DNA of 64,000 bases from an uncultured Chloroflexia bacterium (GTDB lineage Bacteria > Chloroflexota > Anaerolineae > JAAYZQ01). The DNA is taken from positions 704,001-768,000 of the forward strand of contig CAVOXA010000010.1 in the NCBI GenBank assembly GCA_963700285.1, in the 5' to 3' direction. The stretch's first letter is position 1, and every line of letters starts with the position of its first letter. A program made the position numbers and the translations under genes. Under the pieces are notes generated by a model. It saw only the letters and a list, made by a program, of their open reading frames with translations. It did no database searches and had not been told where the DNA came from. Shown here one piece after another: positions 14,572 to 23,132 of the stretch.

Positions 14572-15024
14572 TTAGCCTTCAGATACCTTGACGCGGATTT
14601 CTTTTGGCTTGGCTACTCCCTTGAGGGGCAATGACACTGCCAATACCCCGGCGATATAGGTAGCCTCGGCTTGGTTTCCATCCACCTCAGCCGGGAGCCG
14701 GATAGCTCGGCTAAAGCTCCCGCTTTCCCGCTCTCGCCGGTGATACCATCCGTTTTCCAACCCTTCGCCCGTTGAGCGTGTGCCCTGTACTGTGAGCGTA
14801 TCGCCAGATACGCTGATATTAAAATCCTCCAAGTCCATACCTGGTACCTCAGCCCGCACGATCAATTTGCCTTCGGTAGTCGAGATGATGACACTGGGGA
14901 AAATGCGTGCTCCCCGTCGTGCAACCGGGCGGCGGACTCTTTGCCTCAAGTGGTCCATCTCTCTCTGAAGCCGGACCAGATCCTGTCCGGGATCCCAGTC
15001 TCCTTGACTGACAACATTGGCCAT
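14572..15024 (-). CDS. Hsp20/alpha-crystallin small heat-shock protein
   Basis: AEVPGM...RRERESGSFSRAIRLP...GVLAVSLP...PKEIRV. Confidence 0.9.
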   Translation of the reverse strand: MANVVSQGDWDPGQDLVRLQREMDHLRQRVRRPVARRGARIFPSVIISTTEGKLIVRAEVPGMDLEDFNISVSGDTLTVQGTRSTGEGLENGWYHRRERESGSFSRAIRLPAEVDGNQAEATYIAGVLAVSLPLKGVAKPKEIRVKVSEG

Positions 15025-15093
15025 TGTTCAGCCCTTCCTCCTTGTGCAATCTCTGCGCGGCCCAATCTGCCGACCAGAATAGAATCAGCCCTA

Positions 15094-15148
15094 ATTATAC
15101 CCTAGTTTTGTTAGAATAACCTTAAGAAAGCCTAAACAGAACGTTAAA
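15094..15148 (-). promoter_or_regulatory. hsp20 promoter (-10 TATAAT) with ~11-bp-periodic TTAA-like direct repeats upstream
   Basis: ATTATA at 15094-15099 on +; TTAG/TTAA/CTAA/TTAA at 15111, 15122, 15132 and 15144. Confidence 0.45.
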
Positions 15149-15154
15149 AATCCA

Positions 15155-16396
15155 TTAGGGTTTTGTAATATCCATCACTGTAGAGCGCGGCGCTTGGAAT
15201 GTTGATGGTTTTGTGATCTCGTTCAAAAGAACCGTGGCATAACAACCCGGCAGCAGCCAGAATCGGAGCATCAAACCATCGTCATACCACAGCTCCGGAT
15301 CGTGGATCTTGAAACGCAGCGCTCTGCGCTGGCCCTTGACCTTGATGCCACCGTCAGCTCGGAAATCCTCTAGCGTCAACCCCTCGGCAGCCAAGATATC
15401 CGCCTCGAGGTCTCCCTGCTGCCCAAGCGGTTGGATCATTTTATAGCCAAAGATTGGGCCAGTCGGGCTGATCTCAAAGCGCGCTGCGCGGGGCTGCTCA
15501 GCGATCTCATCCTCTACCCGAAAGACTGACCGCCCGGGGTGCTTTATGGCCAGATCACCAGCATGGACACGATCCAAAGTTTGCAGTCGGGAATCGAGGA
15601 CTTGGTTGAACAATGCTGATTGATAGGCAGACAGCAAAAAGACCTTGAACCGCTTGGGCACCGCTGCATAGGCCCGATCATAGTCGCCTCGAGTGCGGAT
15701 CAATGCGCACAGCGTTCTGCGCTCGTCTGCCATGCTATAAGGCAGCAGGCGCAGTGCCTCCTCCCACTGATCCGCATCGAATCGGGACCGCGCGGCCTGC
15801 ACCGCCTCGCTCTCGCCGCGGTGAGGGACGCCCAAGAAGCTCTTAACAAAGCCCCGAGCGTCGCGCCTGACCACTGCCTTTCCAAGCTGGGCTGAATTGC
15901 CCCGTTGCCCGAAGCGCTGTGAACCGTAGCGATTGGGTACTCCCCGCTGGACCAGTACATCCAAGATGGCCTGGCATGGAACCAGCGCTGATCGGGCTAC
16001 CCCACGAATGCGAATGGTGAAATGGTTTCCACGCAGGTGCCCGATCTTGAGTTTGCTGTTGTGTCGCTTCGCCCACACTACGTCGATATTCGACAGGTCC
16101 AGCGCTGTCACAACTTCGGGAGGCACGCCGTGTACCGACAAGACCTGGTAGGTAGTGGCCCGCGCATCTTTGAGCCCAGCGTAGCCGATGTGGTTTGGTG
16201 GCACACCTAATGCCTGGGCAATCACCCGGAGTGCCTGGAAGGTGGAGACGCCGGTCTTTCTGATCTCAAAGAAGGTATGTTCCCCCTTGCCGCTTGGCGG
16301 ATACAGGGGCAGCTCTTCCACCCGAAAGTCTTCCACTTGTTCCTTGATTGTCCCGCCAATACCAGGCAGATCGTCAGTCACGTATCGCTCTGTCAA
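15155..16396 (-). CDS. truD: tRNA pseudouridine(13) synthase TruD
   Basis: EDFRVEE, GYAGLKDARA, GHLRGNHF, PNRYGSQRFG, SAYQSALFN; probable TTG start at 16396. Confidence 0.92.
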   Translation of the reverse strand: MTERYVTDDLPGIGGTIKEQVEDFRVEELPLYPPSGKGEHTFFEIRKTGVSTFQALRVIAQALGVPPNHIGYAGLKDARATTYQVLSVHGVPPEVVTALDLSNIDVVWAKRHNSKLKIGHLRGNHFTIRIRGVARSALVPCQAILDVLVQRGVPNRYGSQRFGQRGNSAQLGKAVVRRDARGFVKSFLGVPHRGESEAVQAARSRFDADQWEEALRLLPYSMADERRTLCALIRTRGDYDRAYAAVPKRFKVFLLSAYQSALFNQVLDSRLQTLDRVHAGDLAIKHPGRSVFRVEDEIAEQPRAARFEISPTGPIFGYKMIQPLGQQGDLEADILAAEGLTLEDFRADGGIKVKGQRRALRFKIHDPELWYDDGLMLRFWLLPGCYATVLLNEITKPSTFQAPRSTVMDITKP

Positions 16397-16536
16397 GTGC
16401 GCCCCGCCAATTCCTGACCAGGTAACCGCTATGGCCGCCTCCCAGATTTCATTGCCTATTCGATTATACAGCAGGAGTTCGAAAAAGGGAAAGGCCATGT
16501 GCCAATTTGCTAGACCTTCCCATAAGCAGGGTCCGT

Positions 16537-16565
16537 TTGCTGTTTGACCCTTTTTGCGGTATAAT
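16537..16565 (+). promoter_or_regulatory. Probable recA sigma70 promoter
   Basis: TTGCTG-17 nt-TATAAT. Confidence 0.5.
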
Positions 16566-16697
16566 GTGCGAGTATAGGTCGCTTACGGAAAGTTGCGCTG
16601 TATCGCGATGGATCTACTGCCGTGCTTTACCATAGCCCTTGGGCCAGAGTTGGCTCTTTGGAACTGAGCGTTGACAATCGACTTTTGGAGAACATGA

Positions 16698-17738
16698 ATG
16701 GCTGGAACCGGAAAGACCAAAGCGCTGGAGACTACATTAGCTACCATTCAGAAGCGATATGGCGAAGGCGCGATCATGCGGCTGGGGCAAGCCACACACC
16801 TGCAAATAGAGACCATCCCCACCGGATCCCTGGCACTGGACCTGGCCTTGGGTGTGGGTGGCGTCCCGCGGGGCCGCGTCACCGAGATCTATGGTCCTGA
16901 AGGTTCGGGCAAGACTACGGTCTGCCAGCACATTGTGGCGGAAGCGCAGCGTATGGGGGGCGTGGCGGCATTCATCGACATGGAACATGCGCTGGACCCA
17001 CTGTATGCGGCCAAGTGCGGTGTGGATGTGGATGAGCTGTACATCTCGCAGCCAGACACAGGCGAGCAAGCCCTGGAGATAGCGGAAGCTCTGGTACGAA
17101 GCGGGGCCGTGGACGTCATAATCGTGGACTCGGTTGCAGCCCTGGTACCTCGAGCCGAGATCGAAGGGGACATGGGGGACAGCCACCCCGGGTTGCAAGC
17201 ACGGTTGATGAGCCAGGCGCTGCGAAAGCTGAGCGGGGCGATCAAGGCCAGCAATACGGCAATGGTGTTCACCAACCAGCTTCGGCACAAGATTGGCGTG
17301 ATGTTTGGCAGTCCGGAGACGACGTCGGGCGGGATGGCGCTCAAGTTCTACGCATCGGTACGGTTGGACATCCGTCGGGTCCAGGCCATCAAGGAAGGTG
17401 GAGAGGTGACGGGCAATCGGACGCGGGTGCGTGTCAAGAAGAACAAGGTAGCGCCGCCATTCCGAGAGTGCGAGTTTGACATCATGTACGCTGAGGGGAT
17501 CAGCAAAGAAGGGGATGTGCTAGACCTGGGGGTGGAACTGGATCTGATAGAGAAACGGGGTTCGTTCTACTCGTACAAAGAGGAGAGGCTGGCGCAGGGG
17601 CGAGAGAATGCCAAGCAGGTACTGCGGGAGAATCCGCGCCAGTGCATTGAGATTGAGAACGCCATCCGCCGCGAGTCAGGTTTGAAAGAAGTCCCTGTCC
17701 CCATTGGTACGGGCGACATGGAGGAGGAACAGGAATAG
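16698..17738 (+). CDS. recA: Recombinase RecA
   Basis: [46 protein letters not shown]; acidic C-terminal tail. Confidence 0.99.
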
Positions 17739-18294
17739 GCTCTCTGGCTCCAGATGAAGCCAGAGAAGGGAATTGTTGCGGTTCTTCAGGCCGGGGTTGT
17801 TCACAAGTGAATAGCAAGCTGAGATGCTTGATAGTCGCTAGCATTGGACTGCATCACAGCCGTAGAGTAAGCCAGAAAAGGTACGCCGAAAGAGAGTCCG
17901 GGTTCTGGGACCTGCTTGTCCGAGTTCTGGTGGTACTCCAACGCTCTCAATGGGGGTGCGCAGCGCGCACCCAAACAGCACAGGGCGAGGCCACAAGAGC
18001 TTTGATTCTCTTCATGTACATGAGTGCCAGTTGAAACGGAGTTTAGTGATAAAGTGGAGACAGGGTCAAAGAAGCTGGCAGCTATACAATGTGGTGTTTC
18101 ATGTGCTCCACCGAAACTCCATGGTTATGGCAGAAAGCCAGAGAACCCCTGGGTTGAGTTTAGGGAGAATGTCTGCAGCGTCTAGTTAGTAAAGGGGATG
18201 GCTAGCACCTACTTGTCTAATTCCACTCTCCGCTTGATAACTGGTTAGCACTCCAAATCGGCTTGGGCCGGGAGTTACTCGGCTACTCTATTCC
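17732..18294 (+). ncRNA. Putative large (~560 nt) highly structured non-coding RNA of unassigned family
   Basis: No credible ORF; six nested long-range helices, a pseudoknot-capable domain and several local hairpins found by hand; downstream terminator whose G-U pairs work on the + strand. Confidence 0.6.
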
Positions 18295-18321
18295 GCGGGA
18301 TAACATCCCTGATGGGCATTT

Positions 18322-18362
18322 GCGGCTGTGGTGAAAGCGTTCACCATGGCCGTTTTGTGTTT
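18322..18362 (+). terminator. Intrinsic terminator just upstream of recX
   Basis: GCGGCTGTGGTGAA-AGCG-TTCACCATGGCCGT (14 bp including G-U) followed by TTTGTGTTT. Confidence 0.65.
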
Positions 18363-18382
18363 CCCGAGTATTGTGTGGTGAC

Positions 18383-19012
18383 ATGGCAGGCAAGATTACG
18401 GCGCTCAAATATCAAAAGAAGAACCGGGATCGGGTAAGTGTTTTTGTAGACGGTCGTTTTGCCTTCGGCATACCAGCCATCGTGGCCGCTAGCCTGAGGA
18501 AAGAGCAGTTTCTGTCTGATGCCGAGATCGAGTCACTGCAGGAGCAGGGAAGTACCGAATCAGCCTACGGCAGAACCTTGAACTATCTGTCCTATCGGCC
18601 TCGCAGCCGGGCCGAGACTGTTGAATACTTGGAAAAGTATGGGTTATCCGGAGCCCAGGTTGAAGCCATTGTTGGCAGGCTGGAGAGAGCCGGATTGCTG
18701 GATGACGAGGCATTTGCACTGTACTGGGTCGAAAACCGAGAGCGATTCCGGCCACGTGGAGCCCGCGCCTTGCGTTACGAGTTGAGGGCCAAGGGTATCG
18801 TGGATGCCCAGATCGATCAAGCTCTGGCCTCGATCGACGTTTCAGCAAGCGCCCACCGTGCAGCCTGCAGGAAGGCCCAGCAGTTGAGTCACCTGGATCA
18901 GCCAACATTCAAGCGGACGCTAGTTGAGTATCTGGCACGACGGGGGTTTGACTATGGAGTGGCGCAGGAAACTGCAGAACGTCACTGGGAAGCCTTGATG
19001 ACGGACGACTGA
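18383..19012 (+). CDS. recX: RecX regulatory protein
   Basis: LNYLSYRPRS, LLDDEAFA, LRYELRAKGI, YLARRGF; downstream of recA. Confidence 0.93.
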   Translation: MAGKITALKYQKKNRDRVSVFVDGRFAFGIPAIVAASLRKEQFLSDAEIESLQEQGSTESAYGRTLNYLSYRPRSRAETVEYLEKYGLSGAQVEAIVGRLERAGLLDDEAFALYWVENRERFRPRGARALRYELRAKGIVDAQIDQALASIDVSASAHRAACRKAQQLSHLDQPTFKRTLVEYLARRGFDYGVAQETAERHWEALMTDD

Positions 19013-19099
19013 AGGTCCGTCTGAAATCAGTGGCCCGAATGCCCCAAGAGGCAATCGGTTGAAATAGTGAAACGAAATGTGGAAAGGATAAAAAAGGAT

Positions 19100-20641
19100 A
19101 TGACTACAGCGAGCGTTGCGATCCTGGTAGCTTTGGTAGCTTTGGCCGCATTGGCTCTGGGCGCGGTTGGTGGGTATTCCTACCATCGGCACAGAAGCCA
19201 ACAACAGGTCGACGGCGCCGAGCGCCAGGTAGAGCGTATCCTGGCGGACGCGGAAACGCAGGCCAAGGAGCAGGTGGTCCAAGCCCGGGATGAAGCTCAC
19301 AGAATGCGAAGTGCGGCCGAAAAAGAGATCAAGTCCAGGGAACAGGAACTCCGGCGGGAAGAAGACCGTATTCAAAAGAGGCGGGCGTCTCTTGACGAGC
19401 GATTTGAACGCATGGACAAGCAGGAGCGTAGCCTGAGTCAACGCCAGAGTGCGCTGGACAAAAGACAGAACCAGCTGGAGCAGTTGGAGCACGAACGGAT
19501 GGTCGAGCTGGAACGGGTGGCCAATATGACACAGGACGAGGCCAGGAGCCTACTTCTTGACACCGTCAAGCAGGATGCACGACAGGACATGGCCCGGGTC
19601 ATTCGCGAAGTCGAGGCCGAAGCAAGAGAGGAAGGCGAACGCCGGGCGCGAAAAATCGTGACTCTGGCGGTTCAACGCATCGCTTCGGATCAGGTGTCTG
19701 AAATCTCGGTTTCGACCGTGCCCCTGACGAGTGACGATATGAAGGGGAGAATCATCGGCAGACAGGGCCGCAACATCCGCGCCCTGGAGAAGGCGACCGG
19801 GGTAGATCTCGTGGTGGATGATACCCCCGAGGCTGTCCTTTTGTCTTGCTTTGACCCTGTACGGCGTGAGGTGGCCCGGCTAGCGCTCACGAGGCTTATC
19901 GTCGATGGGCGCATCCACCCAGCGCGCATCGAAAGTGTGGTGGCTGCTGCAAAGACGGAGGTCGATCAGATCATCCGAGAGGCGGGTGAGCAAGCTGCCA
20001 TTGAGGCGGGTGTACCTGGTTTGCGTCCCGAGATCCTCAGGCTCATGGGCCGGCTGAAATACCGGACCAGCTATGGGCAGAACCAGTTGGATCACGCTGT
20101 CGAAACCACCCACTTGGCAGGTATCTTGGCCTCGGAATTGGGCGCCAACGTGCGAGTGGCCAAGGCGGGCGCGTTCCTCCACGATCTGGGCAAGGCGGTG
20201 GACCACGAGGTGGAGGGCCCACATGCACTCATTGGGGCTGACCTGGCCAAGCGCTATGGTGTCTCAACGGCCGTCATCAACTGCATTGCAGCGCACCACG
20301 GCGAGGCCGATACCGAATCTCTGGAGGCTGTCATTGTCGAGGCAGCGGATGCTATTTCGGGAGCGCGTCCGGGAGCAAGACGAGAATCACTCGAAGCCTA
20401 CGTCAAGCGCATCAAGGCGCTGGAAGAGGTGGCTAACTCTTTTGACGGCGTGGCTGAAACGTACGCCATCCAGGCCGGTAGGGAAATCCGCATTATCGTC
20501 AAGCCTGAGCAGATCGATGATCTAGCTTCTATCCAGCTCTCAAAGAATGTAGCCAAAGCCGTGGAGGAGAATCTGCAGTATCCTGGACAGATCAAGGTTA
20601 CCGTCATTCGCGAAACGAGGGCCGTGGATTTCGCAAAATAG
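19100..20641 (+). CDS. rny: Ribonuclease Y
   Basis: N-terminal TM and coiled coil; KH motif [14 protein letters not shown]; HD motif LHDLGK; [12 protein letters not shown]. Confidence 0.98.
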
Positions 20642-20848
20642 GCATTCGCCTCCTGTTGGCACAGATCACAAATATCGAACCGAATTGGGGGTTGTGTTTT
20701 GGGGGAGGATCGTGTAGAATAATAGAGACCAATGACCTAGTCTCCTCGGTGTGTCATCTAGGCCAGTGTATCGGTTCAGTCGCATTGGACACAGTCAAGG
20801 GCCGTTTGAACAAGGCCTTCCCCGCAAAGAGGTCCAGGAGGCATCGAG

Positions 20849-21112
20849 ATGGCAGAGATAGTCCGGGTTTCAGCAAAGTCCAGGGCACCTGCAGTTGCCG
20901 GAGCCATTGCCGGAGTTGTCCGTGAGAACAGCCGGGCGGATGTCCAGGCAATCGGCGCCGGGGCGGTCAATCAGGCTGTGAAAGCCATAGCCATCGCCAG
21001 AGGGTTCCTACTTCTCGACGGCCTGGACGTGGTATGCACCCCCTCTTTCGTAGATGTGGAGATTGACGGGCTAGAGCGAACAGCGATCCGATTCGCAATC
21101 GAGGCCCGCTAG
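20849..21112 (+). CDS. spoVS: Stage V sporulation protein S family
   Basis: VAGAIAG...QAIGAGAVNQAVKAIAIARG. Confidence 0.93.
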   Translation: MAEIVRVSAKSRAPAVAGAIAGVVRENSRADVQAIGAGAVNQAVKAIAIARGFLLLDGLDVVCTPSFVDVEIDGLERTAIRFAIEAR

Positions 21113-21152
21113 CCGGCCCACACCGGCGCAGCCAAACCGGACAGAGAAGTGA

Positions 21153-22019
21153 CTAACGGGGTCTGGATCGCCGCCTGCGCCGTCCTCGCTTGAGAGACGG
21201 GAGTTCAGGCTGCGGCTGGCTCATCTCGATCAGTTCCTGCTGTGTTACCTCAACCCGAACCTGGTTCTCTAACTCGACCTGGACCGCCTCCTGCATGACG
21301 TTGACCTGAATGACCTTGCCACGGCCATGAGGCGTGTTGATGATGCTTCCCCGTCGGGGCAGGTTGCTTCTGATCGCCGTGTACTGGTCGTTCTCGTAGG
21401 CTAGACAGCAAAGCAACCGCCCACACACGCCCGAGATCTCCATCGGGCTGAGAGGCAGCTCTTGTTGCTTGGCCATTTTGATCGAGACTGGATTAAACTC
21501 TGTGAGCCAGGTAGCACAACAGAGATTGCGGCCGCACTTGCCCATGCCCCCTATGAGCTTGGCCTCATCGCGTACTCCGATCTGGCGCAGCTCAATGCGA
21601 GCCCTGAACGAGCGGGCCAAATCCTGGACCAATCTGCGAAAATCCACTCTTTTCTCTGCAGTAAAGAAAAAGACCAATCGACTGCCATCATAGTTGTACT
21701 CGGCCCGAACGAACTTCATCGGCAGGTTATGCTCTTGGGCTCTATCCTGGCAGCGGGCCAGGGCGTCCCGCTCCTTGTACTGAAAGTAGGCCATTTGGGC
21801 AAGGTCCAGAGCGGATGCGCGGCGCCTGGCCTTTTTGAGTTGTCCTACTATCTCCTTGTCACTCACCTCACGAGGAGAGAAAAGAACTTTTCCGACTTCT
21901 TCGCCACGAGACGTTTCTACGACGACATATTCCCCGGCCATCAGATCCTCTAGGGTACCAGGATCAAAGTAGTACACTTTGGTCGCCGGGTTGAATCGAA
22001 CTCCAATTACCAAGGCCAT
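21153..22019 (-). CDS. ricT: PSP1-domain Fe-S protein RicT/YaaT
   Basis: RVDFRRLV, RIELRQIGVRDEAK, CGRNLCC, SGVCGRLLCCL; downstream of holB as in Bacillus. Confidence 0.9.
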   Translation of the reverse strand: MALVIGVRFNPATKVYYFDPGTLEDLMAGEYVVVETSRGEEVGKVLFSPREVSDKEIVGQLKKARRRASALDLAQMAYFQYKERDALARCQDRAQEHNLPMKFVRAEYNYDGSRLVFFFTAEKRVDFRRLVQDLARSFRARIELRQIGVRDEAKLIGGMGKCGRNLCCATWLTEFNPVSIKMAKQQELPLSPMEISGVCGRLLCCLAYENDQYTAIRSNLPRRGSIINTPHGRGKVIQVNVMQEAVQVELENQVRVEVTQQELIEMSQPQPELPSLKRGRRRRRSRPR

Positions 22020-22139
22020 CTTGATCCTTTCCAGGAAAACCTGATCTCATAGGGTGCTGCGGTCTGCAGTCTGTCGCTGTACCGCGCACTCGTAGATTGG
22101 TTCTCAAAGAGCCGCTGTCCTGCCTTCAAGCTCTTTGGG

Positions 22140-23132
22140 CTAGCTCTGAGGTAGCAGATTGCTCTGCGGCAACTGGAGGAGCAGTCCTTCAACGGCCAGT
22201 CTGGCATTCACATTTGACTCCACCTGGTCGGCTGTTGCCTGCAAGGATTGCAGCCCAGCCACTGCCTGTGCCAAGGTTAGCTGCGCTGATAGTTGGCGGA
22301 TCTCGTCCAGTCGGTCTACATTCACGATCCCGGTCTCATTTCGACTGCATAGCAGGAGCAGGTCACGCCACCAAGAGATCCACAACTCGATGTACTGACG
22401 AACCATTGCCGGCTCACGGCTGGCCCTGGAAGCATACTCAAGCCGCCCCAACCGATCCTCCTGCAAGAGTCCAATCAGGGTATCCAGACCCTGTTGGCGG
22501 AAGCGCAGTATGGCATCGTCCTCACTGGCACGTAATGCCCATCCCACTCTTCCACCCGAGAGCTTGGACAGGAGTTTTGCTCTAGGTGATGGGACTCCCT
22601 TTTCGCGCAATGCGAGTTCAACGATATCATGGGCAGTTGGCCTCAGGTCCAGACGTTGGCAGCGCGATACCACCGTTGCGGGCAGCGCCTCGGGATCCAA
22701 CGCTGTCAGGACCAGTACTATGTGACCTGGCGGTTCCTCCAGAGTCTTGAGCAGGCTGTTGGCCGCCTCCACGCTGGCTCGGTCCATCTGCCGTAGGACA
22801 AAGACCCGATATCGTCCCTCGTAGGGCGCCAACATCGCTTCCCGCTGAAGTGCCCGGATCTGCTCGATTTTGATGCTGTCCTTCACACCCTCCCCCTGGA
22901 CCAGCTGAACATCTGGGTGAACACCCCTCGCGATCCGGAGACACGAAGGGCACTGGCCACAGGGTGGATCGGCTTGTGTGCAGTTCAGGGCCTGAGCCAG
23001 GGCCAGCGCCAGGGTAGTCTTGCCAACCTGGGACGGGCCAGAGAAAAGATAGGCATGCGCCACCCGGCCTACTGTCAAGCTGCGGCGCAGCAAGTCCACT
23101 GCCCAGTCGTGTCCGATGATCTGCCAACCCAT
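22140..23132 (-). CDS. holB: DNA polymerase III delta' subunit
   Basis: HAYLFSGP..VGK, CGQCPSC, ANSLLKTLEEPP, SRCQ. Confidence 0.95.
   Translation of the reverse strand: MGWQIIGHDWAVDLLRRSLTVGRVAHAYLFSGPSQVGKTTLALALAQALNCTQADPPCGQCPSCLRIARGVHPDVQLVQGEGVKDSIKIEQIRALQREAMLAPYEGRYRVFVLRQMDRASVEAANSLLKTLEEPPGHIVLVLTALDPEALPATVVSRCQRLDLRPTAHDIVELALREKGVPSPRAKLLSKLSGGRVGWALRASEDDAILRFRQQGLDTLIGLLQEDRLGRLEYASRASREPAMVRQYIELWISWWRDLLLLCSRNETGIVNVDRLDEIRQLSAQLTLAQAVAGLQSLQATADQVESNVNARLAVEGLLLQLPQSNLLPQS

Follow-up and report, generated by a model that had tools for sequence, protein, structure and literature searches.

The stretch analysed here, referred to below as the window, comprises 64,000 nucleotides (nt) of contig CAVOXA010000010.1 from an uncultured bacterium of the class Anaerolineae (Chloroflexota), and the element in question occupies the gap between its recA and recX genes. 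recA (16698..17738; Pfam RecA, 444 bits) and recX (18383..19012; Pfam RecX_HTH1-3) are separated by 644 nt, the former ending at 17738 and the latter starting at 18383. Beyond recX lies rny, which encodes RNase Y (19067..20641; Pfam RNase_Y_N, KH and HD) and has no evident promoter of its own; its likely start is the ATG at 19100, behind a GAAAGGA ribosome site. spoVS (20849..21112; Pfam SpoVS) follows and is possibly carried on the same transcript as recX-rny. These genes, and all parts of the leader described below, are on the + strand. A scan of the + strand from 16400 to 21200 for promoters found no sigma-70-like site; a perfect TATAAT is present at 16560-16565, upstream of the recA start, and in this genome the leader is probably carried on transcripts of recA. 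On the - strand, a holB-like gene and then a PSP1-domain gene (21153-23132) converge on spoVS; the latter gene is RicT/YaaT-like, and RicT/YaaT is a partner of RNase Y in Bacillus. We propose that the gap encodes a leader RNA that is probably a zipper-like transcription attenuator of recX-rny, in which a distant upstream strand is predicted to compete for the 5' strand of an intrinsic terminator.

The first-pass annotation of this DNA had described about 640 nt with no credible open reading frame (ORF), and in this it was borne out. Comparison of 18 family leaders by eye revealed no ORF of at least 25 codons common to different genera. An Rfam search, which had been suggested as a check, was run over 15000-21000 at E <= 10 and returned a single chance match, to ftsZ-DE (20.4 bits against a cut-off of 72.2, E 1.8), and 20 related loci gave no match at the gathering score. 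The sequence of the gap is present in one copy in the genome, and no match to it was found in the phage and plasmid collections searched; a mobile or repeated element was rejected on these grounds. The single copy and the lack of an Rfam match likewise speak against a decayed gene or insertion sequence, an outcome that the annotation had named as damaging to its case. OLE, ROOL, GOLLD and raiA RNAs, riboswitches, T-boxes and introns were rejected as identities for want of an Rfam match, in line with the earlier statement that RNase P and intron signatures are missing from the gap. RNase P and 6S RNA, which had been suggested by a loose likeness of motifs, were also rejected because both genes are found elsewhere in the genome. 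The match to RNase P RNA (G000:C1:600312-600786; 72.8 bits, E 9.6e-22, below the cut-off of 100) spans 475 nt against a model of 367 positions and is possibly of an expanded type, and a canonical 6S RNA, a gene known for its synteny with rny, is at G000:C1:933069-933248 (82.7 bits, above the cut-off). The resemblance to OLE that had been noted did not survive: the best match to RF01071 in the whole genome scored 14.3 bits against a cut-off of 50 and was away from the gap, in which none was found at E <= 10. oapA was correctly said not to be adjacent, the downstream genes being recX and rny, although the rest of the genome was not searched for it.

For analysis of conserved pairing, 17 leaders of the source family (16 genomes and one metagenome locus, with a 793-nt leader left out; median identity 46%) were aligned, and all column pairs were scanned without bias. 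The two top-ranking stems were C:D (13 base pairs (bp), 98%) and B:C (12 bp, 92%), which use the same strand C and are thus mutually exclusive. Strand C (18319..18335), with the core GCUGUGG, is the strand common to both, whereas strand D (18340-18353) is the 3' arm of the terminator hairpin. The predicted intrinsic terminator (18322..18363) consists of the hairpin 18322-18353 and a U tract, with a free energy of -22.0 kcal/mol, and is 29 nt upstream of recX; it corresponds to the 14-bp terminator of the first-pass annotation. Strand B (17852..17866), the predicted antiterminator strand, forms 15 bp with C across ~470 nt, and the duplex has a free energy of -25.5 kcal/mol. Upstream of it, strand A (17818..17827), a predicted anti-antiterminator, can form a weak hairpin with B (17851-17860). 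C:D was paired in 98.2% of alignment cells, with 6 of its 13 pairs changed on both sides, and B:C in 91.7% of cells in the family. Variation in strand B is mostly C/U opposite G, a pattern that would be expected of RNA on the + strand. The earlier assignment to this strand is supported by the U tract and by this variation, but not by the folding z-score, which was modest and favoured the other strand (-2.15 for the + strand and -3.26 for the - strand, 20 shuffles each). Because of these two values, the stability of the whole gap by itself neither proves structure nor picks a strand.

Folding of the source leader gave the two states similar energies, -228.2 kcal/mol for the terminator state (A:B with C:D) and -222.6 kcal/mol for the antiterminator state. 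For transcripts in which D is still incomplete the predicted probability of B:C is 0.95-0.97; with D complete it falls to 0.00, and that of A:B is then 0.73. In the family, A:B was significant at p <= 0.05 in 5 of 18 leaders and at p <= 0.1 in 9 of 18.

These pairings replace six nested long-range helices on which the first-pass annotation had relied. All 45 base pairs of the latter do exist in the sequence, but they do not exceed what chance gives and are not the predicted fold. Every one of 15 mononucleotide shuffles gave 13-15 nested stems of at least 6 bp, against 15 in the real sequence. Helices H2-H6 had a pairing probability of 0.0, and forcing them cost ~30 kcal/mol (-198.6 vs -228.2 kcal/mol); H1, the outermost, is built partly from the last codons of recA. 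The two closest relatives break 10 of 90 cells between them, with each helix broken at least once and no pair changed on both sides. Two of the helices could be mapped onto the 14 family members at greater distance, where they were 50% and 45% paired. The local hairpins listed with them fared better, in that those at 17741-67 and 17954-72 are both in the minimum free energy (MFE) structure. What the annotation had asserted overall, an uncatalogued, conserved and structured RNA on the recA transcript, is supported.

The interior between strands B and C (17867..18318) is structured and multi-branched, and is conserved within the family only. Its helix P2 (17885-17890 with 18278-18283) was paired in 86% of cells, the P4 domain (~17914-18003, including the hairpin 17954-17972) in 69%, and P6 (18054-18060 with 18227-18233) in 91-94%. 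Next to P6 is an internal loop of GA/GA type, with its two sides at 18048-18053 and 18234-18237. It is in register in 6 of 17 family rows, or in 8 if two rows are shifted by one column, and is reminiscent of a kink-turn. Between the strands of P6 there is a genus-specific insert (~18070-18215), and the interior ends in a 3' hairpin (~18292-18316). A tandem duplication affects the 5' strand of P2 in the source genus and one neighbour (17871-17890; L016, L018, L038), and P6 can use its 3' strand in a second register; together these give alternative folds. The longest family leader (793 nt, L025) has apparent internal duplications and a compensated change in P6. Folding z-scores of interiors had medians of -1.8 in the 17 family leaders and -2.3 in 22 class leaders, compared with -0.05 in 12 recA coding controls; among controls, the last 330 nt of recA at one locus (L031) was an outlier at -10.6 (8 shuffles). 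No sequence similarity was detected between family interiors and those of other families, and a covariance model of the family 3' part scored at best 33 bits outside the family. Upstream of the switch strands, a 5' hairpin directly after the recA stop (17741..17766; MFE, -14.9 kcal/mol) keeps its 9 bp in both close relatives and is a genus-level feature, possibly an insulator, and a small hairpin precedes strand A (17796..17815; MFE and centroid).

Linkage of the element to recX was examined next. Of 23 family genomes, 22 gave a recX match, and a gap of 420-793 nt is present in all 17 that have both genes at the locus. Searches with the covariance model of the 3' part gave a single strong match immediately ahead of recX in 20 of the 23 genomes, and a second copy in none; the three misses were one genome without a recX match, one contig starting inside recX and one degenerate hairpin. 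Class-wide, 37 of 49 matches to the terminator pattern were just before recX by coordinates, 8 of which were confirmed by tblastn. The terminator is retained in 13 loci where recA is not upstream, and in loci where B is significant its spacing from the recA stop ranges between 1 and 240 nt. Coupling to a ribosome at the recA stop was rejected on account of these two observations. A Gram-positive-type LexA box was found in 0 of 73 leaders.

Conservation beyond the family was assessed with recX-upstream DNA from 60 genomes of the class, hand-picked among 150 listed recX matches (40 near the top and 20 lower), to which 21 family and 3 metagenome loci were added to give 84 loci; a locus that lacked upstream DNA and a duplicate were excluded, and the metagenome scan itself had yielded 4 loci. 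Terminators were sought by an anchored search, requiring a hairpin within two mismatches of GCUGUGG, which replaced an automatic terminator finder (26 of 81 at p <= 0.05) that often chose wrong hairpins. An anchored terminator was present upstream of recX in 73 of the 84 loci, 53 of them with GCUGUGG exactly. Among 55 leaders of at least 150 nt with recA upstream, the best complement of strand C beat dinucleotide shuffles (p <= 0.05) in 29, as against 4 of 52 stretches of recA coding DNA and 4 of 55 reverse strands, and the partner of C was in the first third of the leader in 43.

In one family of the class, f37, the terminal hairpin is of opposite polarity and the leader stands behind its own TATAAT, ~300 nt before recX. 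In 7 of 8 of these loci the 5' strand of the hairpin pairs with a strand 36-50 nt past the -10 box, as if the architecture had been kept while the sequence changed. The f37 hairpin frequently extends right up to the start of recX, and a clear ribosome site is then missing (L105, L106, L108, L112, L113, L116, L117, L124). Elsewhere in f37 (L318-L321), a promoter-like site, a strong ribosome site and an ORF of ~25-30 codons with a conserved 3' end are found ~170 nt upstream of a pattern match, which is a GCUGUGG terminator with a gene for an ABC transporter behind it (for L318, Pfam ABC_membrane and ABC_tran). The arrangement resembles a leader-peptide attenuator in its own right, one with alternative pairings.

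By itself, the terminator pattern has no diagnostic value. When 80 of 124 matches to it in wider genome records were examined, 74 of the 80 records listed were from other taxa. Four matches were too short for analysis; a long-range partner of C was found in 4 of 70 matches in other taxa, compared with 4 of 6 in Anaerolineae/Anaerolineales records, and all six of the latter sit before recX. In Pseudanabaena-type records (L200, L203, L207, L208, L211, L219 and others) the pattern recurs many times in each genome, on either strand, and is probably a palindromic repeat element there. Two loci of one family (L327, L328) have a second GCUGUGG terminator away from recX, with common upstream sequence.

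The position of rny was then compared across the phylum. rny follows recX in 38 of 38 loci, with a promoter-like site between them in 1. Of 60 further phylum loci, 58 of which belong to other classes, 31 have a promoter-like site belonging to rny itself and 1 has a terminator ahead of rny. A leader placed directly before rny in other Chloroflexota classes was rejected, being seen in 1 of 60 loci. Where the further loci gave a full-length recX match, a plain terminator preceded recX in 8 of 11, and a significant long-range partner was found only in one same-class locus. A simple recA-recX terminator thus looks old in the phylum, because plain terminators stand before recX in other classes, and the long antiterminator is associated with the one class where, by this comparison of recX and rny loci, rny appears to depend on read-through. 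The exceptions are three loci from small genomes, in which the gap is short and rny has no evident promoter. In two loci (L191, L182) recA is directly before rny with no recX match between them; the class family of L191 is without recX by the query used, and L182 has, by eye, a short hairpin and U tract between recA and rny that the terminator scan did not report. Two loci of other classes (L143, L153) have long recX leaders with promoter-like sites and opposite-polarity terminators, and in these rny has its own promoter-like site.

Complementarity, its conservation, mutual exclusion of the two stems and linkage to recX-rny can be read directly from the compared sequences, and on this footing we favour a zipper-like attenuator. 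In such a mechanism the interior would fold as it is synthesized, and P2, which lies directly inside B:C, would close it and bring B beside C. B would then zip onto C before D has been made, the terminator could not nucleate, and polymerase would enter recX-rny, so that read-through would be the default state. Once D exists, the terminator is predicted to be only a few kcal/mol lower in energy. If B were trapped (by the weak A:B hairpin in the source family), cut or removed, C would be free to pair with D and transcription would stop.

As to the signal, we give about a third of the weight within the attenuator model to feedback by RNase Y or a partner nuclease acting on the leader, by analogy with other decay nucleases. 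It is favoured because the long antiterminator occurs in the class where rny, lacking an evident promoter, must be reached through the terminator. The remaining share goes to protein binding at A:B or at the GA/GA loop, or to a signal-free valve set by the speed of the polymerase. recX dosage would be an equally good reason for a valve, because RecX inhibits RecA and recA-recX read-through is damage-dependent in Streptomyces lividans.

Several observations weigh against a zipper-like attenuator and have to be set beside this. Termination, read-through and switching are all model predictions. The energetic comparison was extended to 37 loci, where the median difference between the states was -4.3 kcal/mol, the terminator was lower in 31 and the probability of B:C exceeded 0.5 before D in 32, but this set was picked for having B:C and the result is partly circular. 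Within the family, B:C has double-sided changes in only 2 of its 12 pairs, with six more pairs varying on one side. The named structures were 84.3% paired in the real alignment vs 81.2% in shuffles (0 of 500 reached it) and 35-45% when slid, yet these counts overstate the case because the sequences tested are those from which the structures had been read, and related genomes are not independent samples. RNAalifold, in which one structure is allowed, retained only P6 and the terminator in its consensus, and the interiors of the two closest relatives barely beat shuffles (z -0.3 and -0.7). Class-wide, relatedness again removes independence, and the 60 class loci had been chosen by hand in a recX ranking; the anchored terminator is missing in 11 of 84 loci, B:C is not significant in 26 of 55 leaders, and three gaps are only 9, 21 and 97 nt. 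A:B reached p <= 0.05 in only 2 of 28 class loci and p <= 0.1 in 4 of 28, and a class-wide anti-antiterminator is thus not supported. The f37 hairpin has a weak U tract. Cutting by RNase Y during transcription would be harder to arrange because the enzyme has a hydrophobic N-terminus and is known as membrane-bound, and recX rather than rny may be the main target because three loci of other classes keep the recX terminator despite a promoter-like site belonging to rny. A helix that joins the 5' and 3' ends and competes with the terminator would also fit a stable RNA after 3' trimming.

That last point belongs to the alternative which survives best, although we regard it as unlikely: a free-standing or dual-role non-coding RNA of ~480-620 nt, acting in trans, with B:C as its closing helix P1 after 3' trimming and recX-rny reached by leaky read-through. 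The multi-junction interior, with helices conserved in the family, would suit it, as would the kink-turn-like loop beside P6 and the promoter-like TATAAT of the f37 leader. Transcript data are also compatible with it. Eleven metatranscriptome runs contain part of 17300-18800, each below half of the query words, and four (X1-X4) were mapped as assembled contigs with at most one substitution, which carry no information on ends, strand or level and may derive from DNA in the library. Contigs of X1 tile 17768-18327, those of X2 cover 17712-17862 and 18057-18298, X3 has two pieces of the leader, and X4 has one piece spanning the terminator (18267-18417) and one in recX; they are weak evidence, placing leader sequence in RNA libraries only as far as the contigs extend, and no weight attaches to recX pieces being missing among those listed for the other three runs. 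In size, multi-junction fold and 5' and 3' ends able to pair, the leader does resemble OLE, ROOL, GOLLD and raiA RNAs as described in the available parts of PMC12286853 and PMC10861870, from which it differs in lacking an Rfam match, in an interior that is not deeply conserved, in its fixed cis position and switchable terminator, and in not being found in phages. The first-pass annotation had preferred a free-standing ornate RNA of the OLE, ROOL or GOLLD kind. We do not follow it there, since the terminator belongs to the conserved structure and there is a second, likewise conserved partner for its 5' strand, the interior is recognizable in the family only, and the element invariably occurs once, immediately ahead of recX. 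It varies in length from 150 to 700 nt and is missing in some genomes, and its most conserved sequence is a terminator strand, not an interior core. Terminator platforms mark cis elements and, in the part of PMC10861870 available, are missing from raiA RNAs.

A more specific version of attenuation, which we consider distinctly doubtful, would make the interior a bait for RNase Y: a cut in the nascent transcript would detach or destroy B, the terminator would form, and rny and recX would be turned off. If true, such a nuclease-sensing attenuator would tie mRNA-decay capacity to termination and to RecA control; no such loop was found in the papers searched.

Control after transcription is slightly less probable than a free-standing RNA. 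Here the terminator would be simply leaky, and B:C with the interior would be a processing or stability structure on the read-through mRNA (an RNase III-type stem or an RNase Y target) that sets the lifetime of recX-rny mRNA. There is precedent in decay nucleases that autoregulate through their 5' untranslated regions, namely rny of Bacillus subtilis (PMC10303841) and rne of Caulobacter and Escherichia coli (PMC11321048), as far as the available text of these reports goes. B:C is a helix of 12-17 bp, and a GGCUGUG-containing duplex is kept in both hairpin polarities and could be a protein site. On full-length RNA, however, the terminator outcompetes B:C, to the probability of 0.00 and the 31 of 37 loci given above; B:C should matter most during transcription, because the terminator wins once D has been made. 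The rny and rne systems, in the same accessible text, share with the present leader a position before the gene of the main mRNA-decay endonuclease and the possibility of feedback, but work by cleavage and decay of a finished mRNA, in place of which we find a terminator/antiterminator pair, with recX before rny.

A riboswitch or leader-peptide attenuator, sensing a small ligand or a stalled ribosome, is very improbable. The expression platform has the right form, and an interior held inside the antiterminator helix is what an ON-switch aptamer would look like, but the lack of Rfam matches in 15000-21000 and the 20 related loci and of a class-wide conserved core argues against a riboswitch or T-box, the lack of a common ORF of at least 25 codons in the 18 family leaders against a leader peptide, and the variable distance of B from the recA stop against ribosome sensing. 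An ordinary recA terminator followed by neutral or decayed DNA or a small inverted-repeat element, with B:C arising by chance, is hardly credible and already largely refuted: the modest z-score of the whole region, the fast-evolving interior and the frequency of the terminator pattern in unrelated bacteria would fit it, but B:C exceeds three controls, its position is conserved across the class, and the sequence is single-copy with no phage or plasmid match.

Among known systems, the zipper-like attenuator proposed here is closest to cATT of the Bacillus subtilis plasmid pLS20, a zipper-type attenuator whose parts and default antiterminator have been demonstrated experimentally, according to the accessible portion of PMC13401043. 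From the same portion, cATT comprises, in this order, a weak upstream hairpin whose 3' strand is the antiterminator, a folded interior that brings this strand near, and an intrinsic terminator that supplies the partner as its 5' stem; the predicted fold of the source leader has the same three parts in the same order. The two states are of similar energy in each, and the antiterminator is the default in cATT, as is predicted here. As described there, cATT precedes conAn1 in a plasmid conjugation operon and its interior is one imperfect stem of ~90 nt, lengthened by the antiterminator, whereas the present leader is chromosomal, precedes recX-rny and has a multi-branched interior of ~150-700 nt (470 in the source genome). 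An upstream hairpin of the cATT type is predicted in the source leader; at p <= 0.05 it is significant, as reported above, in 5 of the 18 family loci and in 2 of the 28 from the class. We have not filed the leader as a member of cATT because its interior is several times longer and multi-branched, its context is chromosomal and its upstream hairpin is suggested in the source family only.

An intergenic hairpin is also found between recA and recX in E. coli. In S. lividans, read-through of recAX into recX is conditional and damage-dependent, in the available text of PMC2175336, and RecX is a potent inhibitor of RecA, in that of PMC6590174. As far as these sources describe it, such control shares with the present locus a terminator-like element between the genes that limits recX; here the gap is of hundreds of bases, there is a conserved long-range antiterminator, rny would also be gated, and the element is kept without an adjacent recA. 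No published description of a recX-rny leader was found in a search to which most subscription journals and all supplements were external, and the main text of an attenuator survey (PMC2965389), in the part available, makes no mention of recX, recA, Chloroflex or RNase Y.

If the zipper-like attenuator is correct, a class of abundant environmental bacteria would gate the RecA inhibitor and the main mRNA-decay nuclease with one uncatalogued RNA switch. Its antiterminator would reach over 200-700 nt, and zipper-type attenuation would be extended from conjugative plasmids to core chromosomal genes. The architecture of the switch would outlive turnover of its interior and even of the polarity of its hairpin. 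The leader would also provide a testable handle on the level of RNase Y and on the control of recA-to-recX read-through outside Bacillus and E. coli.

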